Notes: generated by a model from the sequence alone, not told the origin. 64,000 nucleotides of DNA from Anaerolineae bacterium (GCA_021463865.1 JAJTXY010000017.1:20635-84634); one strand, 5' to 3'. Positions 5,542 to 25,300 are shown, numbered from the stretch's first letter. Numbers and translations are program-made.

Positions 5542-5568
5542 TTTATCCTATGTCTTTTAACCGGACGC

Positions 5569-8310
5569 ATGACTGAATTTATTCCGAATTCCACCCCTGA
5601 AACCACGCCGCCAAGTGCCCCCATCTCTGCACCTGCACGGCCCGTTTTTGATTTCGAGTCACTGACGCTGTGGCAAGCCCTCTGGTTGTTTCTCTATCGG
5701 CCCGGACGGGTTGCCAACGAATTTTGGCGTGTCATTACGGAACCCGACCCAAAATCGCGTCGGCCCGATTCGCGGATTTTACAGGATACCCCGCTCGGTA
5801 GTGAATTTGTCTCCTCCGATATGCCCTATACCCCCGTCATTGACGAGGCGGGGACACTTTTGCCAGAGGAGCAGGCCGCCTTACAAGCCGCTGTCGCCCG
5901 TGCCGATGCCCGTTATCGCAGCAGCGACCTCACCTTACCCGAACCGCCGGAATGGGCCAAAAATCTGCGTTTTGGTCAATATCTGGTCATTGAGAAAAAC
6001 AGCGCCTTACAAGCAGGCATTTTGCTCGTTGGATTTTTCTTCTCGCTAATTGGTATGGGCCTGCTGCGTTCATCGGCTGTTGACCCTCTCAAGCGAGCGG
6101 CGGGTGATACCAATGGTGCATTTTTCTGGCTGTTCTTCGGCAGCATCATCGCCCTAGTTGCAGCGGGGTTGGGCTGGCGTGAAAAATCCAAGCCGACTCG
6201 AACCATCATTGTTGAAGATGAAACTAATGATGCCAGCGATGGTGATTTACTGCAATCCGCTCTCCGCTTTTTCAATCGCCATTCCTTGCGACTCGCCTTA
6301 GTACCCGTAGCCAGCCTATTTGCATGGTTCGCCTATGACAAAAATGTCGCCCTCATCCCGACGACAGGCGAAGTCGAAGCCATTTTTACGACCACTGGTG
6401 TCATTGCTTGGTTCATGGCGACCTTCTTATGGTTTCTTATTTTTGCCGTAGACCTCAATAAAATTGCCCTCAAGCTGCTGGTACGTCCCGATAACATCGC
6501 CCCGTCTACCCCTCCGTCCGCGCCGCACCGTCGCCGATTTCAATTCCGTTGGGCCTATGTCGCCTTAATGCTGATTTTCCTGCTGGCCTGCTATTTCCGT
6601 CTGCATAATCTCGATGGCGTACCCCCAGAGATGACCAGCGATCATATTGAAAAATTGCGAGATGCCTATCGCGTGGATCAAGGGTATCGCGGTATCTTTT
6701 TTGAAAATAACGAGGGCCGCGAAGGGTTTCAAATGTACTTTGCGGCGATTATTGGGGACTGGTTCGGCGTTGGTTTTAATTTCCGCACCCTCAAATATGC
6801 CACCATCGTCGAAGGCCTATTGACCATTTTGCTGGCCTATTGGTTTGGCAAAGAGATGATCGGACGCGAAACCCGCGAACGTCAAGAACTGGGAGATTGG
6901 GTTGGCCTAGCAATGGCGGCCCTCCTTGCCATTAGCTCATGGCACACCATGTTATCGCGCCTCGGTCTGCGGATTGCCCTTACCCCGTTGACCACCCTCA
7001 TCGTCGTGATTTTTTTGGTGCGGGCTGTTCGTTATAACCGCCGCATTGATTTTGTCTTGATGGGCGTAATGTTAGGTATCGGCACCTATTTTTATCAAGC
7101 CAACCGAATGCTGCCCCTTTTGGTTGTGCCGATTGTGCTACTAGCCGCGCTCGCCAAAGCCAAAATCAACTGGAAAATCACTGCCCGTTACATGGTCAAT
7201 TTGGCAATGGCTGGGTTGATCGCATGGGTGATTTATCTGCCCATGTATCGCTACTCGGTAGAAAATCCGGATGCCTTTTGGAAGCGCACCTATGGACGAC
7301 TTTTTGGCAATTACACCTTCGATTGCCGTAATGTTGAAGGCGAAACCCCCAGCTACTGCACCCCCTCAACGACTGTCGTATTGGAACACATTGTGGATCA
7401 CCATGACGTATTGTGGGATAACTATGTCCGTGCGTTTAAGATGTACTCATGGCAAGGCGACGGCATGTGGATTTTGAACGGCAGTGGCTATCCCGCGCTG
7501 GATACCATCACCAACGCCTTATTACTCATGGGGTTGGGCATGTGGGTAGTGCTCATCATCAAACGCCGCGACGTTGCCCTGCTGGCTATTCCTTTAGGGG
7601 TAATTGTGATGCTGCTGCCAAGCACATTGGCACTTACCCAAGTTACCGAAAATCCATCTTTCACCCGCACCAGTGGCACCATCCCGTTCATTTTCCTGAT
7701 GGCGGCCTATCCACTGGGTTTGATGGCCCATGAAGCGACCAGAGCAGGTTATTCACGTAAGCCCTTTGTCGCCAGTTCTGCCCTGCTTGTCACCCTTTTG
7801 GTTGGGCTAGCCATCCCGTCCAACTACGATACCTACTTCAACGTCTATCGGGAAGGTTATGAAATTTCATGGAAGCCCTATACGCAGATTGCCACCCCGC
7901 TGCGTGATTTTGCCGAAACACGTGGCAGTTATGGCAATGCGTTTTATGTACATTCTGAACACTGGCTAGATCATCGAATTTTGGGTACTGTAGCTGGCGA
8001 TTTTGCTTGGCCCAATGGTCTGCTCAAGGCCGAGGATGTTTACCAACACATCGCTGGCAATCAGGGTACAGTCCATCAATATGACCCCACCAAGCCGCTG
8101 TTGTTTATGGTAAACAAATCGAACGTTGCGGGCCTAGAGTGGTTGCAAACCTATTTCCCCGGTGGTGAAGTGCGGGAAATTCGAGTCAAATTCAACAACA
8201 ATTATTATGTCTATGAAGTGCCGGCAGGATGGCAATGGCTGATTATTCGGGTTACGGAGCAAACCGCCCGATGGTCATGTATCACTAACTGTCCCCCCGG
8301 CCCCAAGTGA
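5569..8310 (+). CDS. Large polytopic membrane protein, ArnT/PMT-like (GT39/GT83-type) putative GT-C glycosyltransferase
   Basis: 913 aa. A ~330-aa N-terminal extension carries several TM helices. An ArnT/PMT_2-like core then starts at FRWAYVALMLIFLLACYFRLHNLDGVPPEMTSDHIEKL, followed by many TM segments and a soluble C-terminal ~170 aa. The family assignment rests on pattern only. Confidence 0.55.
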   Translation: MTEFIPNSTPETTPPSAPISAPARPVFDFESLTLWQALWLFLYRPGRVANEFWRVITEPDPKSRRPDSRILQDTPLGSEFVSSDMPYTPVIDEAGTLLPEEQAALQAAVARADARYRSSDLTLPEPPEWAKNLRFGQYLVIEKNSALQAGILLVGFFFSLIGMGLLRSSAVDPLKRAAGDTNGAFFWLFFGSIIALVAAGLGWREKSKPTRTIIVEDETNDASDGDLLQSALRFFNRHSLRLALVPVASLFAWFAYDKNVALIPTTGEVEAIFTTTGVIAWFMATFLWFLIFAVDLNKIALKLLVRPDNIAPSTPPSAPHRRRFQFRWAYVALMLIFLLACYFRLHNLDGVPPEMTSDHIEKLRDAYRVDQGYRGIFFENNEGREGFQMYFAAIIGDWFGVGFNFRTLKYATIVEGLLTILLAYWFGKEMIGRETRERQELGDWVGLAMAALLAISSWHTMLSRLGLRIALTPLTTLIVVIFLVRAVRYNRRIDFVLMGVMLGIGTYFYQANRMLPLLVVPIVLLAALAKAKINWKITARYMVNLAMAGLIAWVIYLPMYRYSVENPDAFWKRTYGRLFGNYTFDCRNVEGETPSYCTPSTTVVLEHIVDHHDVLWDNYVRAFKMYSWQGDGMWILNGSGYPALDTITNALLLMGLGMWVVLIIKRRDVALLAIPLGVIVMLLPSTLALTQVTENPSFTRTSGTIPFIFLMAAYPLGLMAHEATRAGYSRKPFVASSALLVTLLVGLAIPSNYDTYFNVYREGYEISWKPYTQIATPLRDFAETRGSYGNAFYVHSEHWLDHRILGTVAGDFAWPNGLLKAEDVYQHIAGNQGTVHQYDPTKPLLFMVNKSNVAGLEWLQTYFPGGEVREIRVKFNNNYYVYEVPAGWQWLIIRVTEQTARWSCITNCPPGPK

Positions 8311-8317: not shown

Positions 8318-11300
8318 ATGACTGACGCCGAGAACCGATTCCCAGAACCGATTGAGACATCCACCGGCCTCGAACCGGATTTAGAACCTGACACCCCATC
8401 GCCAGAATCCTTATCTGATGAGGGTGATGGTGCGTCTATAGCGACTCCCCAGTTTGACTACCGAGAAGCCTCTACTTCGGAAAAAGCCGCCCTTGCCCGT
8501 CGCTATGAATGGGGGATCGCAAAAATCCCTTGGGCAGATGTGTTCTGTGCGCTAGTTTTGGTCGCATTGATGGCAGGTGGCTATTGGATGCGTTCGGTTG
8601 GACGTAACTGGGACGACTATACCCACCTCCACCCCGATGAACGCTTCCTAACACAGGTCGCCAGCGAAATCCACTCCGATTCTCCCTTGCGCCTCAGTCA
8701 AGGCGATACGATTGCCGCCAAAGCCGCCTGCGACAAAAAATATCCTCTGCCCCCAGCAGATGTCTTAAATGCCATGTCCCCCGCCGATCAAGCCGAAGCC
8801 TATGCCGAAGCGGGCAAAGGGGGCTATTTCGATACCGCCTGTTCCAACCTCAACCCGCATAACGTCGGTTATGGTTTTTATGTCTATGGCGAATTCCCGA
8901 CCTTCAACACGCGCATTTGGGCCGAAATTTATAATGACCTCACTGGAGAGAGTTGGTGGACGAGTTATAACGCCGTCCAGTTGGTTGGAAGGGCGGCCAG
9001 TTCCGTCGCCGACACCTTAACGATCTTGCTCATCTTCTTGATCGGGACACGCCTATTTAATCGCTGGGTGGGTCTGTTTGCGGCGGGTTTTTATGCCTTT
9101 GCCGCCTTCCCTATTCAGCAAAGCCACTTCTGGACAGCCGATGTTTTCACGTCCTTCTGGGTGGTGCTGACCATCTATTTCGCCGTACTGGTCATGGACA
9201 ACAGCAGTGCCTATCGCCAGCGGTTTGCGGCACTCCCTTGGGTCGTTGGCGGAATTGCAATCTGGGTTTGGGAGATTGTCGCCCAACAAAGCGATTCCAA
9301 ATGGCTGCATAACCTTGCCAGCACCGATACGGAATTTTACGTCCCATTGTTGATCTATGGTGCAGTTCTGCTCACGATGGGATTTGTCACCAGTCTTGCC
9401 GCCGAACAGCGCCGCACGGGTCTTGAAACCGCCACCTTCGCTGTGAGTGTGGCGGGGCTGTTCATCTTAGCCATATCCGGGATAATCGGTTGGTTCGGGG
9501 CGATTGCAACAGCCTTTGTCGCCCTTGTCCTCATGCTGCTCTGGATTAGCGGAGTACAGACCTTAGGCGGCTATACGGGCTTTTGGACTTGGATAGCAGC
9601 AGCTTATGGTCTGTGGGTATTCGATGGCTTGGCCCATTATGACCAACCAACACTCACCCCACTCGCCGTTTATCTGGTCTTCTTCGTGATTCTAGCGTTT
9701 ATTAGCTCAATTATCCGTCAGCTAAAACCCGCCTCAACCCAATACCCCGCCCATCTCGTCATCATCATATTTCTGCTGGTTTTACTGGCGGTATGGAGTG
9801 CTGCCGCGCTGATTGATGGCACGATTTCCGTCGAGGGCTTTTTCGCCTGTCTGGTATTGGGCGCGATTATTGCCGGAGCGAATGTGGCCGGCTTGCAAGA
9901 TTATGCCGGGTTCGGGTTAGCGTTTGGGGCATCCCTAGCCGGACGTGTCAATGTTGCACCCCTGCTTGGTTTGGTATTGCTGGCCGTCATCATTCGGGGC
10001 TTGTTTACGATTGACCGTCGTGCCCTCCATTTTGAACGCCAACAGCAAATCGCCCGTTTGATGGTCGGTCTCATTATCGCCGCCGTATTGACTATTATGG
10101 CCTTCCGCGTCTTGCAACCTCATGCCTTTAACGGGCCACATATTTACAACCTGAGCATCAACAGCTATTGGCAAGATGACCTGTCCGAAGTCAGAGGTCA
10201 GGTATCGGGCAAAAGCGATTCGCCCCCTAATCACCAATGGGCCAATCGTGTGCCCTATCTATTCCCCCTGCAAAACATTGTCCTATATGGTCTAGGGGTA
10301 TTGCTTGGGGTATCCGCCGTTGTTGGGGTGATATGGGCGGTGGTCAATATATTGCGCCGTCAGCCCAATTGGACGCGGGTTGCCATTCCGGTTGCGTGGG
10401 CCGTCGTCTACTTTGCCTATTTTGGCAAAAATTGGGTCACGACCATGCGCTATTTCTTGCCCATTTACGCGGTCTTGACCCTGATGGCAAGCTGGGCACT
10501 GTGGGAAGCCATCACCATTTCCTATCGCCGCCTTAAAATCAAACCGACCACGCTGCGTCGTCTTGCCTTTGGCCTTTCGACCCTTACGCTTGCCATTGTC
10601 ACGGGCTACACTGCCGTCTATGGCTATGCCTTTACCAGCATTTATCGCCATCAACTCACCCGCGTTGCAGCCTCGCAGTATTTCCAAGAATTTGTCCCCG
10701 GCGATTTTGGCCTGTGGGTCAAACGCAGTGATGGCTCGGAGCGCATGATTAATGTGGGGATTTATCCAACCGCCCAATTCCCCCAAATTGCCCATATCGC
10801 CGATGGGGAATCTATGACAGTTGAAATCGCCCCCGAAACCAATTCGGAATTGGTGAGTGTGGTACTGCATCGTTTGGGCGACCCCAACCGTGACCCCGAC
10901 CTCGAATTGGTCTCGTTGCAAATTTGGTCAAAAGATACGGTGCAAGGCCGTGTCTTATTGGGCGAAAAGACCATCAATGCCGACCTGAACGCGGCGGGGG
11001 GTGATTTTGGAACAGAGTACAGCTTGGAATTTAACCCGCCCCTCATCCTAGCCGCCACGTTGGATTCCGTCACTCCCATTACCTATGAGGTGGTGATTAC
11101 GGCGGAACAGGGCGGCCCGATTATGCTTTCGGCCAACATTTCCGATCCCATCCTGCCGATCAATCCATCGCATATTTCGATGTACCTGCGCGATCCTATT
11201 GCGGACAGTCTCAATATCCAAGAACTCGATTTGCCCGTGTTGGATGAGCTTTCCAACATGGCCTATTTCACTGCCGGTTCACGTCAGGAATACAGCTTCA

Positions 11301-14300
11301 TCTCCAATTCGAACGGTGTGATTGACCGTATTGAGATGCCGCATGTCGGCGACCCAATAGCCGACCCCGACCCCGAAACCATGCGCGTGCTGCTGGTGGA
11401 TGATTTGACAGGCCTACAAACGGGTGGGCAGGTCACAGGCGATTTCAACATGGTGCAAGACGGCCTCCGCACCTTTGGCGTCCCCGCCACCATCGAATTT
11501 GCCGAACCCTTCCCGGTAATTAAAGGCAATGTCTATAAACTGGTGGTCATGCCGGATGATTTCTTAGGCATATTCGGTCAGGTCGTCGTAACTGAACTCC
11601 CGTGGGACGACCCCGTGCCCACCAAAGTCTGCCCCCTGCCGTCTGACATAGAGTTCTCAAAAAACAACGCTTCCGGGTTGTGTGACATTACCGACGCGGG
11701 TATTGACCCCTATGGCTCCCATTATCTCGGTGTCGAAACCCATATCGGCGAATGGGACGATGTTGAACAAAAACGGGACTTGCTGCTGCACTACCTCAAC
11801 ATCGGGGATTATTTCACCATTTCCAGCAACCGTTTCTATGACACCCTATCCCGCATCCCGTCCCGCTGGCCCATGACCAACCGCTACTATGAGGCATTGT
11901 TCTCCGGCGAACTGGGCTTGGAACTGGTTGAGTCGTTTACGTCCTATGCCAAAGTTGGCCCGTTTGAATGGCCCGACGAGGTATTGCCCACTGAAAACAC
12001 TTGGCCCCCCAATTGGCGCAATGAATTTGAGGCCGAAGAAGCCTTCCATGTCTATGACCATCCCGCCGTTTTCATTTTCCGCAAGACGCCGGAGTATTCA
12101 CCGGAAAAAGCCGCTGAAATCTTGGATGTCGAACTGCGCCGCGCCGACCAAGCCTATGGTGCATTACTGACTGATGCCGAACCGATCAATATCATCAAAT
12201 GGGACGCCTTCGACGCCACCCAAAGCCCAACTGCCCTGCAAATTCCGCAGTTCCAACAGGAGACCCAGCGCGAGGGCGGCACATGGTCGGAGATGTTTAA
12301 CCATAACTCCATTCTGAACAAATATCAGGTGGTCGGGTTAATCGTCTGGTGGCTGTTGATGGTCGCCGTTGGGTGGATGATTCTGCCTATGCTGGCTCTG
12401 CTGTTCCCCGGCCTGCCAGATCGTGGCTTTGGTGCGGGCAAACTGCTCGGTTGGATTTTGGTGGCGTGGGCCTCATGGTTTACCAGTTCGCTTGGCATCA
12501 GAATGTGGAATCAAAGCGGCCTGCTCGCCCTGTTGCTCATTTTGGCACTCATCAACGCAGGAATTGCCTTTTGGAAACGGCGTGACCTGCTGGAATTCAT
12601 TCGGGAACGCCGCCGCCACCTGCTGATTATTGAAGGCATCTCGCTGGCACTTTTCCTACTGCTGATTGGGGTACGCCTCGGCAACCCTGACCTATGGCAT
12701 CAAAATCTCGGTGGCGAAAAGCCGATGGACTTTGCCTACCTTAATGGCATCCTCCGCAGTACCACCTTCCCCCCGATTGACCCTTGGTTCACGGGTGGCT
12801 ACATCAACTACTACTATTGGGGCTGGGTGCTGGTCGGTGCGCCAATTAAAGCGCTCGGCATCGTCCCCACCATCGGCTATAACTTCGCCGTCCCCACCAT
12901 CTTTGCCATGACGGGTATCGGCGCGTTCAGTGTCGCCTACAATCTTGTGCAGTGGAACAACGAACGCCATCGTCAAGAACCCAAATCACGCGAACCGCAT
13001 GGCCCGTTAGGCAATGCCTACATCGCCGGGGTCGCCGCCTTGACGCTGACGGTGCTGGTGGGCAATCTTGATACGGTGCGTGTGTTTGGCAACGCTGTGG
13101 CCCAGCAAGGCGGTTGGAAAGGCCCGCAAATCCTCAGTACCGTGCGTTATAACAAGGCCGTCAGCGAATTTGAGGAGGAAAATGGCCGTCTCCCCGACCC
13201 CGAAGAAGACAAAGACCTGCGGGAAGCCGCCGAAAATTACAATTTGCTAGATGAGATTAAATTTGAATTTGACAAAGCCTCCGCGTGGCTAGATGGCTTC
13301 CAAGAGGGCCTACCCGATATACTTGATGGCAAGCCGCTCCCAATGGCATCCAACCGCTGGTATTGGGGGCCAACCCGTGTGATAGGTGATCTTCCTGAAC
13401 AGCGCGGCCACAACGCCATCAACGAAATGCCCTATTTCACCTTCCTTTACGCCGACCTGCACGCCCATATGGTCGCCATGCCCATGACATTGTTGGTGTT
13501 GCTGCTGGTCTTAGGTGAGATTTTCGGCGCAGGGCGTGGGTTACGCGGGCCGATCACCTCAGTTTTTGCCATGTTGTTGCTTGGCCTTGTCGTCGGCCTA
13601 CTAAAGCCCACCAACACATGGGACTGGCCCACTTATATGGGGATTACCGTCGCGGGTCTGACCTTTGCGACATGGTTAGGGCAGGGTCGTCTGCGTGGTG
13701 AAGGTGAACCTGTCGCATTCTATTATCGCCTGCGTCGCCTGCTCGATTTACGCAATATTTTATCGCTGTGGCCTCTGCTCTTGGTCATCCCAATGGGCAT
13801 GATGCTCCGCAGCGGCTTATATCTCTATCAAAATCGCAGTTACGAAAATAAACTGCACCAAAACCTCATCCCGACCTATTGTCAGAACCTGCCCGAAGAT
13901 ATTCTCCAATCCCAAATCCCGCCAGCCTGTGACGGCCTCTTGAAGCCAGAGATTACCATCAACAGTATTGCCATGTGGGGAGTTGGGGCGGTAGGTCTTG
14001 TCATCGTGCTCTATATCGCCGCGATGGTCTTGATGGGCAACCGCTTTGATCGGCGGGGCATCCTCGGTTGGATCGGGTCATTGGTGGCTTTTGGCTCATT
14101 CAGCCTGATTGCCATCTACCCCTATGAACGTTTCTTCGCCACCGCCTATGGCAAAATCCTGCCGTGGGAAAGTGATAAAACGCCGCTGTGGGCCTATGTG
14201 GATATTCACGGCGTATTCCTATTTATCATCTTTTCCTTGCTGCTGTGGCAGACCATCCGCTGGCTCAAATCTTATAAAGTCGGCGAACTGCGCCAGTATG

Positions 14301-15430
14301 GGTTGGCAGCACTCGGAGGTTTGTTATTCCTGCCTACCGTTCTATTGGTAACATTGGTCATGGGGGTCTTTGGGGAATATCGTGTCTTGATTGCCGCCCT
14401 GCCCCTCTTTGCGTGGTGCATTTTCCTATTCCTGCTCCCCGGCCAAAGTGCCGTCGAACGTGCCATCTACACCATTGCCGCCCTCGCCCTTGCCTTAACG
14501 ATGGCCGTCGAACTCGTGGTACTCGAAGGCGATATTGGCCGTCAAAACACCGTCTTTAAATTCTATATTCAGGCATGGCTATTATTCAGCATCGCCTGTG
14601 GTGTCGGATTGGCATGGCTCGTCCGGGCCGCCGAACAATGGAGCATTCCGACACGCGGGGTTTGGCAAACCGCTACCGCCATTTTGCTCAGTATCGCCCT
14701 GCTCTATCCCATTATGGCAACCCAAGCCCGTTTCCTTGACCGCATGAACGCAAGGGAAACCCCGCTGACCCTTGACGGCATGGCCTATATGGAAGTCGCC
14801 CCACATGGCGAATATGCCGACCCACAAGATCAAACCACCAGCGTTTGGTTTAATCTCAGCGGTGATTACAAATTGATTCGCTGGATGCAGGACAATGTAC
14901 AGGGCACGCCCACCATTATTGAAGCGCAACTCAGCGAATATCGTTGGGGTAGTCGTGTCAGCATCTACACGGGCCTGCCAACGATTTTGGGCTGGAATTT
15001 CCACCAGCGGCAGCAGCGTAATATCAATCTGCTCAATAATATGGTCTGGAATCGCGCCAACAATGTGCAGGCATTTTATACCACTACCGACATTCAAACC
15101 GCGTGGGATTTAATTCGCTTCTATAAAGCCGAGTATATTGTGGTCGGCACGTTGGAGCGTATTCAATACCGCGACTTCCGCAGCGACCCTGATGGCACCT
15201 TCCAGCAGCATCAAGTGCCGGGGATTGCCAAGTTTGACACAATGGTCGAGATGGGCCTGCTCGAAGTCGTTTATGAAAATCCGGTGTGTGTCATGCCCGA
15301 TATTCGAGACGTTGAAAAATGCCCGCCGGAACGCATCAGCACTGACAAAATCTATCGCGTCATATCCGACGTTCGCACTGTTTTGGATTTACCCGCCAAT
15401 CAACAAATTTTTGGCAAGGTCACACCCTAA
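8318..15430 (+). CDS. Giant (2370 aa) tandem Chlor_Arch_YYY / DUF2298-type integral membrane protein
   Basis: One uninterrupted ORF starting 7 nt after the upstream stop. Module 1 has HLHPDERF (Asp codon at 8636) and a degenerate GFYVYG (8876-8890). Module 2 has GEKPMDFAYLNG and the canonical INYYYWG (YYYWG at 12809-12823). A ~550-aa non-hydrophobic insert lies at roughly nt 10650-12320. The C-terminal soluble domain contains GLPTILGWNFHQRQQR. Confidence 0.75.
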   Translation: MTDAENRFPEPIETSTGLEPDLEPDTPSPESLSDEGDGASIATPQFDYREASTSEKAALARRYEWGIAKIPWADVFCALVLVALMAGGYWMRSVGRNWDDYTHLHPDERFLTQVASEIHSDSPLRLSQGDTIAAKAACDKKYPLPPADVLNAMSPADQAEAYAEAGKGGYFDTACSNLNPHNVGYGFYVYGEFPTFNTRIWAEIYNDLTGESWWTSYNAVQLVGRAASSVADTLTILLIFLIGTRLFNRWVGLFAAGFYAFAAFPIQQSHFWTADVFTSFWVVLTIYFAVLVMDNSSAYRQRFAALPWVVGGIAIWVWEIVAQQSDSKWLHNLASTDTEFYVPLLIYGAVLLTMGFVTSLAAEQRRTGLETATFAVSVAGLFILAISGIIGWFGAIATAFVALVLMLLWISGVQTLGGYTGFWTWIAAAYGLWVFDGLAHYDQPTLTPLAVYLVFFVILAFISSIIRQLKPASTQYPAHLVIIIFLLVLLAVWSAAALIDGTISVEGFFACLVLGAIIAGANVAGLQDYAGFGLAFGASLAGRVNVAPLLGLVLLAVIIRGLFTIDRRALHFERQQQIARLMVGLIIAAVLTIMAFRVLQPHAFNGPHIYNLSINSYWQDDLSEVRGQVSGKSDSPPNHQWANRVPYLFPLQNIVLYGLGVLLGVSAVVGVIWAVVNILRRQPNWTRVAIPVAWAVVYFAYFGKNWVTTMRYFLPIYAVLTLMASWALWEAITISYRRLKIKPTTLRRLAFGLSTLTLAIVTGYTAVYGYAFTSIYRHQLTRVAASQYFQEFVPGDFGLWVKRSDGSERMINVGIYPTAQFPQIAHIADGESMTVEIAPETNSELVSVVLHRLGDPNRDPDLELVSLQIWSKDTVQGRVLLGEKTINADLNAAGGDFGTEYSLEFNPPLILAATLDSVTPITYEVVITAEQGGPIMLSANISDPILPINPSHISMYLRDPIADSLNIQELDLPVLDELSNMAYFTAGSRQEYSFISNSNGVIDRIEMPHVGDPIADPDPETMRVLLVDDLTGLQTGGQVTGDFNMVQDGLRTFGVPATIEFAEPFPVIKGNVYKLVVMPDDFLGIFGQVVVTELPWDDPVPTKVCPLPSDIEFSKNNASGLCDITDAGIDPYGSHYLGVETHIGEWDDVEQKRDLLLHYLNIGDYFTISSNRFYDTLSRIPSRWPMTNRYYEALFSGELGLELVESFTSYAKVGPFEWPDEVLPTENTWPPNWRNEFEAEEAFHVYDHPAVFIFRKTPEYSPEKAAEILDVELRRADQAYGALLTDAEPINIIKWDAFDATQSPTALQIPQFQQETQREGGTWSEMFNHNSILNKYQVVGLIVWWLLMVAVGWMILPMLALLFPGLPDRGFGAGKLLGWILVAWASWFTSSLGIRMWNQSGLLALLLILALINAGIAFWKRRDLLEFIRERRRHLLIIEGISLALFLLLIGVRLGNPDLWHQNLGGEKPMDFAYLNGILRSTTFPPIDPWFTGGYINYYYWGWVLVGAPIKALGIVPTIGYNFAVPTIFAMTGIGAFSVAYNLVQWNNERHRQEPKSREPHGPLGNAYIAGVAALTLTVLVGNLDTVRVFGNAVAQQGGWKGPQILSTVRYNKAVSEFEEENGRLPDPEEDKDLREAAENYNLLDEIKFEFDKASAWLDGFQEGLPDILDGKPLPMASNRWYWGPTRVIGDLPEQRGHNAINEMPYFTFLYADLHAHMVAMPMTLLVLLLVLGEIFGAGRGLRGPITSVFAMLLLGLVVGLLKPTNTWDWPTYMGITVAGLTFATWLGQGRLRGEGEPVAFYYRLRRLLDLRNILSLWPLLLVIPMGMMLRSGLYLYQNRSYENKLHQNLIPTYCQNLPEDILQSQIPPACDGLLKPEITINSIAMWGVGAVGLVIVLYIAAMVLMGNRFDRRGILGWIGSLVAFGSFSLIAIYPYERFFATAYGKILPWESDKTPLWAYVDIHGVFLFIIFSLLLWQTIRWLKSYKVGELRQYGLAALGGLLFLPTVLLVTLVMGVFGEYRVLIAALPLFAWCIFLFLLPGQSAVERAIYTIAALALALTMAVELVVLEGDIGRQNTVFKFYIQAWLLFSIACGVGLAWLVRAAEQWSIPTRGVWQTATAILLSIALLYPIMATQARFLDRMNARETPLTLDGMAYMEVAPHGEYADPQDQTTSVWFNLSGDYKLIRWMQDNVQGTPTIIEAQLSEYRWGSRVSIYTGLPTILGWNFHQRQQRNINLLNNMVWNRANNVQAFYTTTDIQTAWDLIRFYKAEYIVVGTLERIQYRDFRSDPDGTFQQHQVPGIAKFDTMVEMGLLEVVYENPVCVMPDIRDVEKCPPERISTDKIYRVISDVRTVLDLPANQQIFGKVTP

Positions 15431-15432
15431 AA

Positions 15433-18400
15433 ATGGCACAAATTCAGCAATCAACTTCATCGCGCCGCAATTCCAGCGCCTTCAATCCACTTTGGCTGTT
15501 ATGGCTCGTCCCGGCAGCAGCAGTGGTCGTGTCTATCGCCAACTATTTTGGCTGGTTCTATTTCGATGGCGTCATTCCCAAATTTGACAGCCTGCGCTGG
15601 GAATTATTCACCAATTGGACTGGACGTGAATTGGGGGATGTACTGGTCTGGTGGCTACTGGTGACATTAGCTGGCGCGGCGGTGTTCCCCTTGATGTTCC
15701 GCCTCATGTCCGGCCTCTCCGATAGGGGTTACACATTGGCGCGGGCCGCTGGTTTGATGCTGATCGGTTATATTTTCTGGTTTCTTGCCAGTATCGGCGT
15801 CCTGCGTAATGAAGTTGGCGGGATAGTTTTTGCATGGATTGTGGTCATTATCTTAAGTTTGGTTGCATGGTTTCGCGGGTCAGATTGGCCTGCGAGGGCG
15901 GAATTCCGCGCATGGCTACGCGAACATCTGCCCCTAATTGTTTTCACCGAAGTATTGTTCCTCGGCGCGATGATTATTTGGGCCTTTGTCCAAGCCCATA
16001 ACCCCGAAATTACCTCCACCGAAAAACCGATGGAGATGGCTTTTATCAACGGCGTCCGCAACTCTGCCACCTTCCCACCCAAAGACCCTTGGATGGCAGG
16101 CTACGCCATCAGCTATTACTATTTTGGTTATGTCATCACCGCCTCGCTTGCCGATTTAAGTGGTGTGACTACGGGAATCGCCTTCAAATTGGTCAATCCG
16201 TTGCTGTTCGCCATGACCCTCACGGGCATTTTGGGCATTACCTATAATCTCGTTCGGGCGGGTGGACGCACATGGCGCGTGGGCAATCGTCATGCCGCCC
16301 TTGCCACAGGCCTATTAGCCGCGTTTTTCATCACCATTATGGGCAATCTAGGCACGCTGTTGGTCGAAATGCCCTATCGCGGATACACCGCCGAAACTCC
16401 GCTTATCAAAGATGTAGTAAACGCGGATTACTTCGATTTTTGGGATGTGCGGGATCGTACCGGGCCATTTATGGTGCAAAATGTCACCGATCCCCAAACA
16501 GGCCTGCCCGCCGTACATCTGCTGGATACCGATACCTATGTCAGCCCTGAAGACCCAATAACGCAGAATTACGTGTTTGCCCCGGATGAAGACCGCGACG
16601 GCATTCCCAATTGGGATGACACCGACGATACCGAATTAGAAGAAGCAGGCAATCACTGGGATTACTGGTGGTGGTTTAAACAAAGCCGCCTTGTTTATGA
16701 CAAAAAATTCAGCGGTGGCTATGAGGAAGCCATTACCGAATTTCCCCAATTCAGTTTTATCTTGGGTGACAATCACCCCCACGTGTTGGCCCTGCCCTTC
16801 ACCCTCCTAATCATTGGCCTAGCCGCCAGCCTTGCTATGCGACCCACCAAACTCGCTAATTGGGAAATCATCGTGTATGGCGTATTTTTCGGCGGCATCA
16901 TCTTTATGAATGCGTGGGATGCCCTCTATCTAGGTCTGCTAGTTGGGGCGGAGGCCTTGCGCCGCTTGATGCACAATGGCGGTTTGAATGGCTTTGGGGA
17001 ATTAGGCCGCGTCATTACCCTTGAGACCCGCCGCAGACAAAATCTCTATCTACTTGGGCCAGTGTTCATCGTCCTGCTGTTGTTTTTCGCCACCTCCGAT
17101 ACCTTAGGTGATGGCTTATCCATTGGTGAAATCCTTATTGGCCTGATACTGGTCGCCCCCGTCACCCTGATCGTCAATTGGGCCTTAGATGACAACGATT
17201 GGGGATCCGTCGTTCGGCTCGGTGGGTCGCTGGCGATTCTATTTGTCATGCTGTACCTGCCGTGGCTGGTCAGCTTCACCAGCCAATCGCAGGGCATGTC
17301 CGTCAATTTGATTTACCCTACCCGCTCCCAACAGTTATTTTTGCAGTTCGGCATTTTCGGTCTGCTGATTTTGCCCTTCATTTTCCAGCAAATGGGACGA
17401 GCGGGGCGGCGTATTCGGTACGGTGCGGTGATCGGGTTAATCTTGCTCGGTTTGATCTTTGCCATCGGTGTCCCGTTGTTCTCTGCCGCTATTGTGGACA
17501 GTCGAACCTGCCCTCTGCAAAAAGGTCAAGAAGGGTTAATCGGAACACTCGCTGAACCCGCACGTTCCAATTGCCAAGCACGTTTTCGGCTGTTTAGTGA
17601 ACTACGCGACGACAATGAAATCCGCCAAGTCAAACTTTTGGGGCAGGACTTAGGCGAACTCTCCAAGACACGCTTGACCCTCTATACCGTCTATCAACGC
17701 CGCCTCGGAGCCTTGATTGGTCAAATAGTGCTGCTGACCATCGCCACCATTATCATGATGCGCCTGTTTGCCCGCAATCTGAACTCCCATGACACCGATA
17801 AACCTACCCCGATTATTGATTACAGCCCCGGAACTGGGGTCGCCCTCTTGCTCATTGCGATGGGCGTGGTCACGACTTTTGTTCCCGATGTCATCTACCT
17901 GATTGACAACTTCGGCAACCGCATGAACACCATCTTTAAGCTCTATTATCAAAGTTGGACGTTATTCAGCATCGGCGCGGCCTATGCCGTCTTTGCCATT
18001 TTAAACGGTGCTCCCAATCGAGCCGATGAGGAAAATCGCATCGCCCCGGTATCCGTTTTTGTGCTGCGCGGGGTCTATGTGGTGGGCCTGCTCTATCTTT
18101 TGTGGGCCGGCGCATTGTATCCTTATTATGCGGTGCGTTCGCGGGCACTATACGAAACCAATCTAGATAATCAGTTAGCGATGATAGAGGCTTGCCAATC
18201 CACAGGTGCAACCGACTGCCCCGGCATCCCCGAAATTTCACTAGATGCTGGCCCGACCATCATACAGGCGATAGGTACAGACGAATGGAAACTCATCAAC
18301 GAATGTTTTATGAAGCTAGAACCCCGCAAAAATGATGCGATTTTGGTCGAAACCCCCGGTGGCGGTTATACAGCCCATCTAGGCCGAGTCAGCATGTTGA

Positions 18401-18696
18401 CAGGGATTCCCACCCTGCTCGGTTGGGACAATCATGAGCGGCAGTGGCGCGGCGATACCTACAACGATGTGGCAGGAAATCGTGAAGGCGATATTTTTAC
18501 CCTCTACACCACTGAGGATTGGAACACCGCGCAGGATATTATAGATAAATACGGCATTGATTATGTCATGGTCGGCAATTCGGAGTTTAATGCCTATGGC
18601 GGTCAAGACTCCGACGGCCTCAGCAAATTTAGCGAACTTTTAGACCCGGTTTGTCATGAAGGCAGTGTGGCCCTCTATCGGGTCAGTGCGGAATAG
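15433..18696 (+). CDS. Chlor_Arch_YYY / DUF2298 family integral membrane protein (single module)
   Basis: 1087 aa with the ATG 2 nt after the upstream stop. TEKPMEMAFINGVRNSATFPPKDPWMAGYAISYYYFGY (YYYFG at 16114-16128). It is colinear with module 2 of the upstream gene: DNHPHV vs DLHAHM, FKLYYQSW vs FKFYIQAW, GIPTLLGWDNHERQWR vs GLPTILGWNFHQRQQR. Confidence 0.8.
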   Translation: MAQIQQSTSSRRNSSAFNPLWLLWLVPAAAVVVSIANYFGWFYFDGVIPKFDSLRWELFTNWTGRELGDVLVWWLLVTLAGAAVFPLMFRLMSGLSDRGYTLARAAGLMLIGYIFWFLASIGVLRNEVGGIVFAWIVVIILSLVAWFRGSDWPARAEFRAWLREHLPLIVFTEVLFLGAMIIWAFVQAHNPEITSTEKPMEMAFINGVRNSATFPPKDPWMAGYAISYYYFGYVITASLADLSGVTTGIAFKLVNPLLFAMTLTGILGITYNLVRAGGRTWRVGNRHAALATGLLAAFFITIMGNLGTLLVEMPYRGYTAETPLIKDVVNADYFDFWDVRDRTGPFMVQNVTDPQTGLPAVHLLDTDTYVSPEDPITQNYVFAPDEDRDGIPNWDDTDDTELEEAGNHWDYWWWFKQSRLVYDKKFSGGYEEAITEFPQFSFILGDNHPHVLALPFTLLIIGLAASLAMRPTKLANWEIIVYGVFFGGIIFMNAWDALYLGLLVGAEALRRLMHNGGLNGFGELGRVITLETRRRQNLYLLGPVFIVLLLFFATSDTLGDGLSIGEILIGLILVAPVTLIVNWALDDNDWGSVVRLGGSLAILFVMLYLPWLVSFTSQSQGMSVNLIYPTRSQQLFLQFGIFGLLILPFIFQQMGRAGRRIRYGAVIGLILLGLIFAIGVPLFSAAIVDSRTCPLQKGQEGLIGTLAEPARSNCQARFRLFSELRDDNEIRQVKLLGQDLGELSKTRLTLYTVYQRRLGALIGQIVLLTIATIIMMRLFARNLNSHDTDKPTPIIDYSPGTGVALLLIAMGVVTTFVPDVIYLIDNFGNRMNTIFKLYYQSWTLFSIGAAYAVFAILNGAPNRADEENRIAPVSVFVLRGVYVVGLLYLLWAGALYPYYAVRSRALYETNLDNQLAMIEACQSTGATDCPGIPEISLDAGPTIIQAIGTDEWKLINECFMKLEPRKNDAILVETPGGGYTAHLGRVSMLTGIPTLLGWDNHERQWRGDTYNDVAGNREGDIFTLYTTEDWNTAQDIIDKYGIDYVMVGNSEFNAYGGQDSDGLSKFSELLDPVCHEGSVALYRVSAE

Positions 18697-18707: not shown

Positions 18708-20996
18708 ATGGAAGTACCCATGAATTTAGAATCCCGTCCTACCGTCAGCGGAATACGGCTCAATATTTCCGGCGAAGTGCTGGCCTATCTTGTCTTGCTG
18801 CTTTTGGCGGGTGCGTTACGCCTGATCTCGCTCGATCACGCCCCCCTAACCAACCGCGAGGCCCATGAAGCCCTTGCCGCCTTGCGTTTGGTCAATACTC
18901 GTGTGCCGGGGGATGCGATGGTCGCCGACAGCCCTATGATGGCCTTTGTCAACATGCTCCTATTTGTTTTCTTGGGCAATGCCGACAGCGTGGCACGCTT
19001 GGGTACAGCGATAGTTGGCACATTATTGGTCTTAGGCCCACTGCTGTGGCGGGGTTTTTTGGGGCGCGTCACGGCCCTAAGTTTCGCCTTACTGCTGACC
19101 TTTTCGCCGGTAGCAATGGCGGCTTCCCGCACAATGGGCGCGGCAACATGGACGATGGCGGTGGTGTTTATCGGTGGCTGGTGTCTCTGGCAGTATATCC
19201 AGACCCGCAGCAAAGCCTATGCCATCAGCACGACAATGGCCGCCGCCGCCATTTTGTTATTGACCGAAACGACGGGCATCATCACCGTCATCGGCCTTGC
19301 CTGTGGTTTGGCGCTGGCCTTGTGGTCATCCCGCAACCTGATTTCTGAAGCTGACGCCAAATCCCCCGCCGATACCCTGCGCGAGATTTCCAAATCATGG
19401 CCTTTAGTCGAAGGCCTGATGGGTGCATTAGGCTTGGTATTGGTGGTTGGCACGGCCCTATTCTTCGCCCCATCTGGTCTCACCGCTGTGGGTAACACCA
19501 TCAGCCAATTTATTGATGGCATCAACGAGCGCACGCCGGGTGTCCCCTACCCTTACGCTTTTGTCGTCAGCCTGCGTTACGATCTCGGCCTTGTGTTGTT
19601 TGGGTTGGTTGGCCTCTACTTTGCCTTGAGTGAGGGCAATTTCCTAACCCGCTTTTTTGCTGGTTGGTTTATCTGGGCCATTCTCGCCGCCATCCTTTAC
19701 CCCGGCGCGACGCCTGATGCCGCCCTATGGATTACCATGCCTGCCGCTGGTTTGGGGGCGTTTATCATCACCCGCATGTGCCACAGCGCCCAAACGGGTT
19801 ATTGGATTGTGCCAAATTGGGGCATCCCGGCTCATGCTATCGGGGTAGCGCTCTTACTAACGGCCCTCTCAGTGAATGGCTTGGTCGTGGGGCGTGCCTT
19901 ACAGCGCGAAGCCTTCCCCGGCAATTACAAGCCCATCAATTTTACTGCCACCGAAAAATCACAGGGGACACTGACTTCTGGCGCACGCATTGGATCATTT
20001 TACGATCCGCAAAACTCTCTCAGCACTTTCCCGCTGTATGTCACCGTTCAGCCAACCGCGCTGGTAGTGCAGATTTGGCGTCTCGATGGCAACATCGCCC
20101 CCCAACTAACCGTTCTCGACGAAAACCAGCAGGTCATCTATGGCCCATTCGCCTACCCCGCCGACAGCGGCAAGGGCATTGTGGAACGCTTAGATTTACC
20201 AACAGGCAATTATTTCCTAAATGTCACGCCTTCCGCTGAGACCTTAAACGAACGTGGGCAATATCTGGTTATGACCTATCCCGCCGATTACAAAGAACGG
20301 GACAGCTTCTACTTGGATATTCCCTATATCCTTGCCACGTTCCGCATTTTGCAGGCTAATCCCCCCTTGCCTGTCACCGCACCACTGGTGTTGTTGTTCT
20401 CTCTCCTCCTACTGATTATTCTATTTTTCTTGGTGGGCAGTCTATGGGGCAGCCGGGCCGCGTGGCGTGGATTGGGTTTTGGTATGTTGGCCTATTTCAG
20501 TTTGTATGGTATTGGATTGGGCTGGCAAGCAAGCGTGACCTTTGCCGATGACCCACGTGAACTTTGGCAGAGCCGCGACACCGCCGAGAATTATGATGCG
20601 CTAGTGGACACCTTGAAATTTATGTCGCGTCAGGACAACGGTGAAGAATATCGTATTGACATCACCGCCCAAGCGCCGGATGATGGTGCATTAGCATGGG
20701 CACTGCGTAATTTTGAGCGCACCCAGTTCGTCGAAGGGATAGGCATCGAAATCAACTCCGCCGTTGTCATCGCGCCCCCCACTCCAACCGGGCAACCGTT
20801 GGACATCGGCGCGGATTATGTGGGTCAAGACGTCATCCTGACCCGTCATTACGAACTCAGTTGGCTCAATTGGGTGGATGCCCTCGGTTGGCTGACCCTG
20901 CGCGAAACTCGTTATCCAACCGTGCCAGATCAACAGATGATGTTATGGGTACGTAAAGATGTGTATGGGGTGGATGAAGTCCCCCTCGGCCAGTGA
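18708..20996 (+). CDS. Polytopic membrane protein, divergent TIGR03663-like paralogue lacking the family's conserved DE/HGP motifs
   Basis: 762 aa. The N-terminal ~170 aa align by eye with the 1754-aa protein (LGNADSVARLGTAIVGTLLVLGPLLWRGFLGR vs FGPSDFSARVYPAVLGVLLVMFPLLFKRWIGR). Where the larger protein has HDESLH, HGP and SRYIRED, this one has NREAHE, DSP and SRTMGAA. A soluble beta-rich insert is present (LPTGNYFLNVTPS, possibly PPC-like). Confidence 0.6.
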   Translation: MEVPMNLESRPTVSGIRLNISGEVLAYLVLLLLAGALRLISLDHAPLTNREAHEALAALRLVNTRVPGDAMVADSPMMAFVNMLLFVFLGNADSVARLGTAIVGTLLVLGPLLWRGFLGRVTALSFALLLTFSPVAMAASRTMGAATWTMAVVFIGGWCLWQYIQTRSKAYAISTTMAAAAILLLTETTGIITVIGLACGLALALWSSRNLISEADAKSPADTLREISKSWPLVEGLMGALGLVLVVGTALFFAPSGLTAVGNTISQFIDGINERTPGVPYPYAFVVSLRYDLGLVLFGLVGLYFALSEGNFLTRFFAGWFIWAILAAILYPGATPDAALWITMPAAGLGAFIITRMCHSAQTGYWIVPNWGIPAHAIGVALLLTALSVNGLVVGRALQREAFPGNYKPINFTATEKSQGTLTSGARIGSFYDPQNSLSTFPLYVTVQPTALVVQIWRLDGNIAPQLTVLDENQQVIYGPFAYPADSGKGIVERLDLPTGNYFLNVTPSAETLNERGQYLVMTYPADYKERDSFYLDIPYILATFRILQANPPLPVTAPLVLLFSLLLLIILFFLVGSLWGSRAAWRGLGFGMLAYFSLYGIGLGWQASVTFADDPRELWQSRDTAENYDALVDTLKFMSRQDNGEEYRIDITAQAPDDGALAWALRNFERTQFVEGIGIEINSAVVIAPPTPTGQPLDIGADYVGQDVILTRHYELSWLNWVDALGWLTLRETRYPTVPDQQMMLWVRKDVYGVDEVPLGQ

Positions 20997-21030
20997 GGGA
21001 TTTCGCCCTCCACTGTGTAGTATAGGATTT

Positions 21031-21630: not shown

Positions 21631-21632
21631 CT

Positions 21633-22268: not shown

Positions 22269-22281
22269 TTCGTCTTAAATC

Positions 22282-22336: not shown

Positions 22337-25300
22337 ATGGCAACATTAAACCCAACGGCCCAAAACGACGGGCCACCCGTCTTAGAAAAAGCGCTTCAGC
22401 GACTCTATACGCTCAACTTTGAAACCATTGCCTACCTCATCATCTTTGCGGTGGCGGTCATCAGTCGGTTTTGGGATGTCGGCGCACGTGTCATGAGCCA
22501 CGACGAAAGTCTCCACACCTACTATTCGTGGAAGCTCTATGACGCAGGCGATTTTCAACATACCCCCCTGATGCACGGGCCAGTGATTTTCCATATGGTC
22601 GCGTTTTTCTATTGGCTGTTCGGCCCCAGCGATTTTAGTGCCCGGGTCTACCCGGCGGTGCTGGGGGTGTTGCTGGTCATGTTCCCGCTGTTGTTTAAGC
22701 GTTGGATCGGCAGAACCGGGGCGATCATCGCCAGCATCGGCCTGATTATCTCACCAATGATCTTGTTTCACAGCCGCTATATCCGTGAAGACGTCCCGTC
22801 CGTTTTCTTCACGCTGGTCATGTTCTACGGCATTATGCAATACATAGATGGCGAAAAACCGCGTCGTCCGGTCTGGCTGGCGGTGATTGGCGGCGGTATG
22901 CTGCTTTCGCTTGCCAGTAAAGAAGTCGCCTTTATGTATATTGCCATTATTGGCAGCTTCTTCACCCTCTATTGGATTTTGCGGATCATCCAAGACCTGA
23001 ACTTCAAACGCCAAATTCCGGTTGATGATGTTTATGTACCCAACCCAACCATTGACGATGAACAAGAGGGAGTCAAAGCTACCCCCGTTGAAGCCCCTAC
23101 CCCGCTTTGGCAATTGCTGTTTGGGCATCTTGTCACGCTCGCCTTTGCAGGCATTTTGGGGTATCTGGCAGGTCATCTATTGGGCATCTTTACCGAAGCA
23201 CTGCAACCGGGGAATATGATGCTTGGCCCACTCAGTCTCACTCAAGGCCGATTTTTCACACTGGTTTTTGCTGCCGTCTTTTTTATCTTGGCAGAATTGT
23301 TTGGCCCAACACGCGGGCTATTAGTCTTCTTCCTCGGTCGTGGCGCACGCCTCGTCAAAACCCGCCCCGAACCCAGCGTCGCCCAAATGGTTGTCAATTT
23401 GCTGGCCGATGCTCGTAGCACCATTATTTTGATTACGGCGGGGTTGGTGATTGGTGGGGTTTCGGCGTTGTGGGCCTTCAGCATTTTGGACATCATCAAG
23501 CCCGCAACCGTCTTTGAAGAATTCACCTTTGCCCAACGCATCCAAGAGCAGGCCGCCACTAACCCCAATATTATCAATGAGCTACCCGGCCCCGGCCAAA
23601 AAATGGAGGCCATTGATGTTCGTGTCAATGAAACCGAACTCGGTCACGCGGCAACATGGTTGCTCGTCCCCATCGGCGTGATATGTTTCTTGACAGTTTT
23701 GATTGCTGCCCTCAAAACCCCGACCTCTTTGCGATTTACACCGGGGGATGCGGCTGTTGTGATCGGCGGGGTAGCGCTCAACGTTATCGTGCTATTTTTG
23801 AATGTCGTCGGGCCAGATTTTGGTCTACCCAAAGCCGCCCTATGGATTCTGCTGCCCATTGACCTGATGGTGGTGGCCTTCCTGCTGCGCCCCCCTTGGC
23901 AAGATGTCTTAATTATCTTCCTTGTAGCCACGATCTTTTTTGGGGTGCTCTTGGTAGCTGAACGGCGCAGTTTGAAGACCGAAGAAGGCGAACAGCAGTC
24001 CCAATTTGCCGCCGACCCCAACGCCGCTGAGATTCAGCAGGATGTTCAACACGACAACAAATATATATGGTTCACATGGCTGGCCGGGACAATGATTACC
24101 GCAGCCGTACTATTGACCCGCATGTTCACCAACTGGTGGGATTTCCTGAATCGCCAACCCGTTTTTGATGTCTTGATTGTGATTGGCACATTAGCCTTTC
24201 CGTGGTTGGCGGCCTTCCCGCTGTTTTGGGCCGGCTATACATTGGACGCCGCTCCACTCCCGGATGACACCTTTAAAGCTGCCATATTAGTCGTCATTCC
24301 ATTTTTCTTGGTGAGTGCTTCTGTCGGCTTGGCATGGAATTATCGCCTCTGGCCCATCCCACTAGCAGTATTTGCCTTGTTGTTTGTCGTCTTCTTTACA
24401 ACCTTTTTTACCAATGGCAATGGCGTCGGAACAGGTTTGATCGGCTCACTGGGTTATTGGCTAGAACAACAAGGGGTGCGACGCGGCAGTCAACCGCAGT
24501 ATTATTACACCTTCCTTGAAATCCCGGTCTATGAATTTTTGCCGACCATCATTGCCAGCATCGCGGGGTTTGCGGGTCTATCAGGTCTCTTTGAGTTCCG
24601 CCAAAAAGCCAACCGCTATATTCGTGAGGTCGCCTATCGCCAAAACGCCCAATCTGTCGGGGAAACAAGTAGCGTTGAAGCCGCCCTCACTCCCGAACAA
24701 TCGCGTTCCCTTTATGAAATGATGGGTAGCGAAGGCGAAACACTCACCAGCATCTCAACTGAAATGATTGAGATGGCCGAACGCAGCTATTCTGCTGGCG
24801 AGACACAACTAGGGTCTCCCACCGTCGCAACCAATGTAGCAAGTCCAGCCTCCCCAACCGAAGCAGTAGCTACAGATGAAAATGGAAACAATCCCGCCCT
24901 GCCCGATTTAAGCGATTGGTTGGCCGAGCATGGTGAAAATGGCAATTATAGCCTACCCAATTGGGCACGCCCCTATGACCATGACGAAGAAATGGCTAAA
25001 CGCACTAATGGCGACCCGACCTATTTAGGCGGCTTCCCCTTCCTGCAATTCATGGGCTATTGGAGCGTGATGATTATCGTTGCCCTCACGATGGCAGGCG
25101 AAAAGATGCCTTGGTTGACCACCCATATCAGCGTGCCATTGATCTTTGTGGGCGGCGCTTATCTGGGAACGGTTATTGATAAAATCCGCTGGTCAAGTGT
25201 CAAAGCCAGTGGTTGGGTATTGTTGGCCCTCGTCGTACCCGTATTCCTAATTGCCCTTGAACAACTATTGATGCCAGCCTTCACAGGTGGGACTGACCTG

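Follow-up and report, generated by a model that had tools for sequence, protein, structure and literature searches.

A PMT_2-like module fused to one YYY (DUF2298) module, with an adjacent YYY paralog, in a conserved gene cassette of Anaerolineae

Several described groups of membrane glycosyltransferases of the C-type fold (GT-C) come close to the two genes considered here. These are the PMT_2 (PF13231) and PMT (PF02366) families, that is, the GT39 protein O-mannosyltransferases (PMTs) and the GT83 ArnT-type enzymes; the GT66 group of STT3, AglB and PglB; and Agl23 (TIGR03663), a flippase-activity-associated family of haloarchaeal glycosylation. Closest is the YYY family (TIGR03662, Chlor_Arch_YYY; PF10060, DUF2298), with 8,522 cluster representatives at 50% identity, which we take to comprise two classes: proteins with a single module, and proteins with an additional N-terminal region, two copies and TPR repeats. 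Paralogous GT-C proteins can act as heterodimers, as EmbA-EmbB do in mycobacteria and Pmt1-Pmt2 in yeast. Agl23 of Haloarcula hispanica is a putative hexose-P-dolichol flippase, for which translocation of lipid-linked oligosaccharide was shown in vitro (PMC11182771). Here we analyze two adjacent genes in a 64,000-nt stretch from an Anaerolineae bacterium (GCA_021463865.1, JAJTXY010000017.1:20635-84634; the window), which encode proteins of 2370 and 1087 amino acids (aa) on the + strand. The larger protein carries two membrane modules, of which only the second (module 2) belongs to the YYY family, as does the 1087-aa protein; the first (module 1) is a predicted PMT_2-like GT-C unit, and the predicted fold of the YYY modules is of the STT3/AglB type. 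Feature coordinates are collected in Table 1.

The earlier note on this DNA described the 2370-aa protein as a tandem YYY protein of two homologous membrane modules, the first a degenerate copy followed by a soluble insert. Pairwise and hidden Markov model (HMM) alignment instead revealed no relationship between module 1 and module 2. In BLASTP, residues 1-800 matched neither module 2 nor the 1087-aa protein (E ~2-9), and they gave no match to DUF2298 or TIGR03662 even at E<=10. Profile-profile comparison of module 1 with YYY (hhalign) gave a probability of 1.5-1.9%, while the YYY-YYY control gave 100%. The relatives of module 1 are PMT_2 proteins. Precomputed PF13231 matches precede PF10060 in most of the 120 best homologs of residues 1-1340, and the PMT_2 and PMT matches in relatives (27.7-54.5 bits; PF13231 cutoff 26.1 bits) align to residues ~215-310 of the window protein.

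The acidic first-loop motif HPDERF is kept in module 1, as the earlier note had seen: H105, P106, D107, E108 and R109 do not vary in alignments of 93 and of 97 sequences. They follow directly on the first transmembrane helix, where PMTs and other GT-C enzymes have their catalytic Asp-Glu, and by position HPDER may correspond to the PMT 'DE' motif. The sequence FYVYG, interpreted before as a reduced YYYxG, is itself conserved (Y190 and G191 invariant), and no method aligned the two. The ratio of nonsynonymous to synonymous substitution rates (dN/dS), computed against the 95.6%-identical ortholog described below, was 0.034-0.046 for the core of module 1 and 0.037-0.048 for module 2. Since these values are comparable, module 1 is conserved and not decaying.

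Predicted structure agreed with this assignment. AlphaFold2 models were made of residues 60-1259 (predicted local distance difference test, pLDDT, 91; predicted template modeling score, pTM, 0.89) and of residues 1171-2370 (pLDDT 87, pTM 0.86) and searched against the PDB with Foldseek. For module 1 with its own globular domain, nine of the 11 matches at E<=0.001 were GT-C enzymes, with AglB (the top match, E 7.7e-6), EmbA/EmbB, STT3B, ALG12, ArnT and PglB among the GT-C matches; the other two were phage baseplate proteins, matched to beta-rich domains. The best superposition was on Pmt4 (TM-score 0.55). By sequence comparison and predicted fold, module 1 is thus a putative member of a separate GT-C family of PMT_2/GT39-like type and no degenerate YYY copy. 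It shares with PMT and ArnT the predicted fold and an Asp-Glu pair after the first helix, and its relatives pass the models. It differs from them by an extra helical bundle, by a large periplasmic part of beta-sandwich and alpha/beta domains, by lacking MIR domains and by its fusion to a second GT-C module. The extra bundle of ~230 aa (residues 297-525) occurs only in the closest relatives, the ~2300-aa forms, and evolves faster (dN/dS 0.17 versus ~0.04); in most homologs module 1 is ~450-500 aa long and lacks it.

A tandem YYY duplication with a degenerate first copy is not without points in its favor. The two modules each span the membrane many times and each place an acidic motif in the first outer loop, with an aromatic-rich motif directly ahead of the following helix; a GT-C fold is predicted for both, so that a very remote common origin at the superfamily level is conceivable; and genuine tandem YYY proteins are known elsewhere. 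In those genuine tandem proteins, however, the module 1 unit precedes both YYY copies and is therefore a third, different unit. With the failure of BLASTP, HMM and profile-profile searches to link module 1 to YYY, with PMT_2 proteins as its relatives and with constraint on it as strong as on module 2, we consider a tandem duplication very improbable, and at the family level the sequence comparisons refute it.

The ~550-aa non-hydrophobic insert reported after module 1 is present as a stretch of ~530 aa (residues ~796-1325) but is not an insertion. One homolog (P0112) consists of module 1 and an insert-type domain with its own stop codon and without a fused YYY module, which identifies the stretch as the native C-terminal periplasmic domain of module 1. 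Another apparent stand-alone module 1 (P0059) was set aside as a fragment of a frameshift-ridden cassette. The AlphaFold2 prediction, of high confidence here, gives beta-sandwich domains and then an alpha/beta domain. The beta-rich first half gave Foldseek side matches to beta-sandwich and jelly-roll modules of GH2, GH92, Cry toxins and phage baseplates. The alpha/beta second half has no Pfam or NCBIfam match and carries the invariant residues W1096, R1172, R1179, P1185, Y1191, G1200, E1241, V1245, Y1246, H1248 and P1249; homology of this domain to the C-terminal domain of the YYY modules was ruled out (hhalign <1%). The loop KRRDLLEFIRERRRH (residues 1417-1431) of module 2 is strongly basic and should be cytoplasmic. 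Module 2 would then begin outside the membrane, its EKPM/YYY loop would lie there too, and the former insert would be periplasmic.

Module 2 and the 1087-aa protein are, as claimed before, colinear homologs and full-length members of the YYY family that keep its motifs; module 1 and the insert lie outside this family. Both proteins exceed the cutoffs of TIGR03662 (300.25 bits) and PF10060 (27.8 bits). From residue ~1330 (nt ~12308) module 2 aligns with the 1087-aa protein at 28% identity in BLASTP (E 2e-38 and 3e-19), and their family profiles match in hhalign with 100% probability over the membrane part (E 9e-65) and the C-terminal domain (E 8e-39). The 1087-aa protein has an extra N-terminal transmembrane helix (residues ~17-35), which would orient its YYY module like module 2.

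Conservation was assessed in 134 modules (72 of the module 2 type and 62 stand-alone) from species-genome loci and the window. Invariant in both types are E1467 and M1470 (EKPM), W1490, Y1498, Y1499, G1502, E1703, D1713, H1715 and H1717, and likewise N1766, D1769, R2075, N2077, F2080 and K2081. Within YYYxG, Y1498, Y1499 and G1502 were each found in 134/134 modules and Y1500 in 131/134; the C-terminal motif TG.P....GW..H..Q..R is conserved as well. The motifs listed earlier (E of EKPM, YYY, G, ExPxF, DxHxH, FK.Y, GW..H) are accordingly invariant or nearly so, and the D/E, HxH and YYY residues remain the best candidates for an active site. Fused and stand-alone modules also carry type-specific residues (G/Y at 1494, N/S at 1497, D/N-Q at 2072), and these would fit subfunctionalization between the two types.

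The two types form separate clades in a tree (30/30 bootstrap; one broken locus, L019, was counted as a split fusion), and identity between them averages 27% and never exceeds 35%. The YYY duplication thus predates the radiation of these lineages. The earlier note proposed duplication followed by subfunctionalization; duplication with divergence holds for module 2 and the adjacent 1087-aa gene and not for modules 1 and 2. The two-copy class with TPR repeats named there for TIGR03662 is real: proteins of 2,400-2,700 aa from Herpetosiphon and other Chloroflexota (P0335, P0349, P0359) consist of module 1, its domain, two YYY modules and TPR repeats, so that the additional N-terminal region of that class is the module 1 unit. 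A further protein (P0264) is a YYY-YYY fusion. The 2370-aa protein belongs to neither of the two classes, having a PMT_2-like unit, one YYY copy and no TPR domain (the absence of TPR had been noted before), and its second YYY copy is the neighboring gene. The triple-module proteins of Chloroflexia share with the window the module 1 unit, the alpha/beta domain and a ratio of one PMT_2-like to two YYY modules, which therefore recurs both in the fusion with its adjacent gene and in single-chain, Herpetosiphon-type proteins. They differ in having all modules in one chain with C-terminal TPR repeats and in a second YYY copy that lies outside the clade of the 1087-aa protein. For the latter reason the window pair was rejected as a split form of the triple-module architecture.

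The fold of the YYY module points to STT3. Its only confident full-length Foldseek matches were human STT3A, yeast Stt3 and archaeal AglB (probability 0.99-1.0, E 9e-4 to 2e-3), and the next unrelated match had a probability of 0.16. Global TM-scores were low (0.23-0.29) and AglB was also the top match of module 1, so the match of the transmembrane part mainly says 'GT-C'. The match of the YYY C-terminal domain to the C-terminal globular domain of AfAglB-S2 (3vu0; probability 0.93-0.97, TM-score 0.50-0.54, E 0.33) is the more specific signal, as far as predicted models can tell.

Profile comparison supports a possible homology of the YYY C-terminal domain with that of STT3/AglB. The STT3 profile covered only an 83-residue C-terminal core, verified with the STT3A, STT3B and yeast Stt3 chains of the PDB, and its homolog set consisted of exon-sized fragments. 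Against this core, the YYY C-terminal profiles scored 44-57% in hhalign with three STT3 sequences and 71-75% (P 2.5-3.9e-5) with 120 STT3 fragments. Five control profiles (the insert, its alpha/beta part, module 1 and both YYY membrane parts) stayed below 1%. Two independent YYY C-terminal profiles aligned at one place in STT3, through 'A..II.RYGIDYIVVG.AER..Y....GL.KF'. The likeness to STT3, AglB and PglB extends over the predicted fold, with a probable match of the C-terminal domain, profile similarity in the DK-motif region, and acidic residues with a DxH in outer loops; the differences are GW[ND]xH in place of WWDYG, the lack of an STT3 HMM match and three extra N-terminal helices before the acidic-motif loop. 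We read YYY as a divergent, STT3/AglB-like GT-C family, which on this evidence cannot be called a member of GT66.

If the likeness were taken further, the YYY modules might be true oligosaccharyltransferases (OSTs) that move a preassembled lipid-linked glycan as a whole to proteins of the envelope (N- or O-linked), while a separate O-linked sugar would be added or primed by module 1. In favor of this are the structural matches, which are best with STT3A, Stt3 and AglB and take in the C-terminal globular domain specific to OSTs, the alignment of YYY 'DYIVVG...KF' with the STT3 DK-motif region 'DYVLV...DDINKF' (hhalign 71-75%) and the Agl23-like proteins in the neighborhood; the DxH of 'DLHAH' also resembles the Asp/His metal ligands of AglB. 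Against it stand the exchange of WWDYG for GW[ND]xH, the partly generic nature of the AglB match and the lack of any STT3 Pfam or NCBIfam match among 52 family members at E<=10, and on these grounds an OST of this kind seems unlikely. In these 52 stand-alone YYY proteins the search likewise gave no PMT or other GT-C signal; the only recurrent weak matches were to PF09976 (TPR_21) in 17/52 (best E 1.4e-4) and to Dpy19 in 2/52.

The fusion and its partners form a conserved cassette. The scan of species genomes (one genome per species) gave at least 589 matching stretches, all titled Chloroflexota, mostly Anaerolineae, except one bin labeled Pleurocapsa. Cultured Bellilinea caldifistulae is among the carriers, and the closest relative among the matches listed is an Anaerolineae metagenome-assembled genome (MAG) of 96% identity. 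Architecture was mapped on the 120 homologs and on 80 genome loci, the best 80 of the at least 589 stretches. Module 1 and a YYY module shared one ORF (open reading frame) at 77/80 loci. The stand-alone YYY gene started within 700 nt downstream of the fusion at 61 of the 65 loci with enough downstream DNA, a gene like that of the 913-aa protein lay just upstream at 56/66, and one like that of the 762-aa protein just downstream at 49/54. Three loci from Brevefilum and Anaerolineaceae MAGs (L069, L073, L075) have the 762-aa-like gene directly after the fusion with no stand-alone YYY gene there and are natural variants with one YYY module only.

Both ORFs of the window are real, and every peptide quoted from them by the earlier note was found in its place; the ATG of the 1087-aa gene lies 2 nt after the stop codon of the 2370-aa gene. 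An independent assembly of the same organism (L003) holds a nucleotide-identical copy of the 2370-aa gene, and a close relative from a different sample (L006) has a 2370-aa ortholog of 95.6% amino-acid identity followed by a 1090-aa gene. The first homolog search missed these near-identical orthologs through a limit of the tool and not for a biological reason. A few database records (L019, L048, L088) show the cassette broken into several ORFs, as would be expected if assembly or gene calling had joined two separate genes in the window. These split cases resemble frameshift-ridden assemblies, however, and in L088 both YYY genes are shattered too. Given the fused ORF at nearly all loci and its identical length in independent assemblies, the chance that the 2370-aa ORF is such an artifact is practically negligible. 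In L088 (a 4.2-Mb contig), L019 and L048 the fusion and stand-alone YYY genes lie in pieces, probably from frameshift errors, and some database entries of 'stand-alone PMT_2' proteins, such as P0059, are consequently fragments.

On balance we favor the reading that the fusion and its YYY paralog, with the flanking PMT_2-like and Agl23-like proteins, form a membrane GT-C glycosylation complex that uses polyprenyl-phosphate sugars at the outer face. The 2370-aa protein would bring to it a PMT_2/GT39-like GT-C module with HPDER, the periplasmic domains of that module and one YYY module. The YYY modules are predicted to have an STT3/AglB-type GT-C fold and an AglB-like C-terminal domain, with GW[ND]xH in place of WWDYG, and the invariant acidic and histidine residues E1467, D1488, E1703, D1713, H1715 and H1717 would sit at the membrane's outer face. 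Most likely the fusion, the 1087-aa protein and the flanking proteins assemble into one membrane complex; polyprenyl-phosphate carriers would supply it with sugars, which it would pass to an acceptor in the envelope, either protein or glycan, outside the cytoplasmic membrane, and so build or attach an envelope glycan. The two YYY paralogs probably work as a pair, like EmbA-EmbB and Pmt1-Pmt2. The likeness is that two diverged paralogs stand side by side and are retained together across the lineage; the difference is that for module 2 and the 1087-aa protein the pairing is drawn from analogy only.

Several results weigh against this proposal. Module 1 of the window itself has diverged so far that it stays below the Pfam PMT_2 threshold and gives no match. 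Module 2 has no STT3 match at E<=10 in Pfam or NCBIfam and no PDB sequence match, a search of all PDB chains with whole-family profiles gave no relevant match for either module, and no sequence-level link of the transmembrane parts to STT3 or PMT was found. WWDYG is absent from the YYY modules, and the motif conserved there, GW[ND]xH[QE]xQ[QW]R, is paired with it only where the alignment extends at low confidence. Because the triple-module proteins have a second YYY copy that falls outside the clade of the 1087-aa protein, fused and split forms are not simple fusion or fission derivatives of each other. The window holds no gene found to encode a polyprenyl-phosphate sugar synthase (GT2), and no functional study of the YYY family turned up in a literature search.

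The YYY modules could also be non-enzymatic, serving as carriers, flippases or scaffolds for lipid-linked sugars used by their PMT_2-type neighbors. This would suit a family without a characterized member in a cluster that already has four other GT-C-type modules, and Agl23, a relative of the flanking genes, is tied to flippase activity and not to transfer. The invariant acidic and histidine set at the predicted outer face, together with a conserved outer globular domain, is however typical of GT-C active sites and not of transporters, and both paralogs keep the invariant residues across the 134 modules. A purely non-enzymatic role is therefore distinctly unlikely in our judgment, and the glycosylation complex remains our preferred reading. 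Going beyond it, one may speculate that DUF2298/YYY is an unrecognized STT3-related GT-C branch, and that in Chloroflexota two diverged YYY paralogs act as an obligate pair tethered to a PMT-like transferase, as an OST-like machine for the glycosylation of proteins or envelope glycans that would have common ancestry with archaeal AglB; this we hold to be doubtful.

The genes of the window are ordinary orthologs of hundreds of database entries in a large, named family. Three things are new: module 1 is reassigned, the conserved cassette is defined, and the YYY module is seen to resemble STT3/AglB. This link to STT3 is the most interesting part. Placing DUF2298, which is conserved throughout Anaerolineae, in the GT-C fold near STT3/AglB makes the family testable: it names residues to mutate, the membrane face on which an active site would lie and partners to co-express. 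The PMT_2-like unit, the second YYY paralog and their neighbors make up a conserved operon of ~4-5 genes, whose probable role is to build an envelope glycan or to attach one, in a phylum with a poorly understood cell envelope. If the OST-like reading were true, STT3-type enzymes would extend to a major bacterial phylum.

Table 1. Features of the fusion gene, its YYY paralog and their conserved neighbors (window coordinates)
Feature	Coordinates	Strand	Basis or remark
Upstream partner, 913-aa polytopic membrane protein, PMT_2-like GT-C	5569..8310	+	7/9 orthologs pass PMT_2 cutoff
Fusion gene, 2370 aa	8318..15430	+	ORF: PMT_2-like GT-C module, periplasmic domains, one YYY (DUF2298) module
N-terminal acidic tail, probably disordered, cytoplasmic (residues 1-65)	8318..8512	+	poorly conserved, dN/dS 0.29; first modeled residues pLDDT <50
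Module 1, PMT_2/GT39-like GT-C transmembrane module (residues 66-795)	8513..10702	+	PF13231/PF02366 in relatives; Foldseek
HPDERF first-loop motif (H105-F110), candidate catalytic Asp-Glu	8630..8647	+	H105-R109 invariant
Lineage-specific extra transmembrane bundle in module 1 (residues 297-525)	9206..9892	+	predicted helical; dN/dS 0.17
Beta-sandwich periplasmic domains, first half of 'insert' (residues ~796-1092)	10703..11593	+	AlphaFold2 all-beta, high pLDDT; length varies among homologs
Alpha/beta periplasmic domain, conserved, second half of 'insert' (residues ~1093-1325)	11594..12292	+	invariant residues; present in P0112
Module 2 transmembrane part, YYY/DUF2298/TIGR03662 (residues ~1331-2140)	12308..14737	+	PF10060 337 bits, TIGR03662 488 bits
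Module 2 C-terminal globular domain with GLPTILGWNFHQRQQR and ...KF (residues ~2141-2370)	14738..15427	+	Foldseek to AfAglB-S2 domain, hhalign
Stand-alone YYY protein, 1087 aa	15433..18696	+	ancient module 2 paralog; TIGR03662 400 bits, PF10060 306 bits
Downstream partner, 762-aa Agl23-like (TIGR03663-like) GT-C-type membrane protein	18708..20996	+	TIGR03663 85.6 bits, below cutoff (126)
1754-aa Agl23/PMT_2-like membrane module with NHL beta-propeller	22337..27601	+	TIGR03663 204.9 bits (above cutoff), PMT_2, PMT, NHL

The cassette lies in a + strand cluster (683-27601) with the order PMT_2 protein, LPG_synthase_TM-like protein, GT4 glycosyltransferase, methyltransferase, the four-gene core, an extracytoplasmic function (ECF) sigma/anti-sigma-like pair and the 1754-aa protein, orthologs of which lie downstream in many loci. 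The 913-aa protein gave no family match with its own sequence. The 762-aa and 1754-aa proteins resemble Agl23, and TIGR03663 has the same distribution over Chloroflexi and Archaea as TIGR03662; Agl23 is nevertheless a family distinct from both fusion modules, and the likeness concerns the neighbors only. With its flanks (683-8310 and 18708-27601) the ~27-kb cluster holds at least six GT-C-type modules, in a 540-aa PMT_2 protein, the 913-aa protein, both modules of the fusion and the 1087-aa, 762-aa and 1754-aa proteins. Its methyltransferase is an S-adenosylmethionine (SAM) methyltransferase. The upstream order LPG_synthase_TM, GT4, methyltransferase and 913-aa gene recurs in L088, where the module 1 segment (P0059) is 36% identical to the query. 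In L006 the 1090-aa gene and a 766-aa gene are separated by a gene for a DsbA-like thioredoxin and by a small ORF. The ECF sigma factor and anti-sigma-like protein (20959-22268) stand between the 762-aa and 1754-aa genes, a hint that envelope stress may control at least the latter.

Elsewhere in the window, two genes belong to the LPG_synthase_TM family, one within the glycosyltransferase cluster (2411-3457, +) and one outside it (47370-48536, -). Glycogen-type genes lie scattered at 31286-33907, 49584-50861 and 59540-61060, for an alpha-glucan phosphorylase with DUF3417, a GlgC-like nucleotidyltransferase and a GlgA-like starch synthase; they seem to have no connection with the GT-C cluster. 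At 56514-59568 (+) the stop codon of a D12-class N6-adenine DNA methyltransferase gene overlaps a 663-aa ORF without a family match, and the two may be a restriction-modification pair. The 390-aa protein encoded at 28131-29303 (-) begins with a TIR domain and ends with an FHA domain, on either side of a membrane-like middle region, an architecture reminiscent of defense or signaling proteins, and a methyltransferase-like gene (29300-30220, -) adjoins it.

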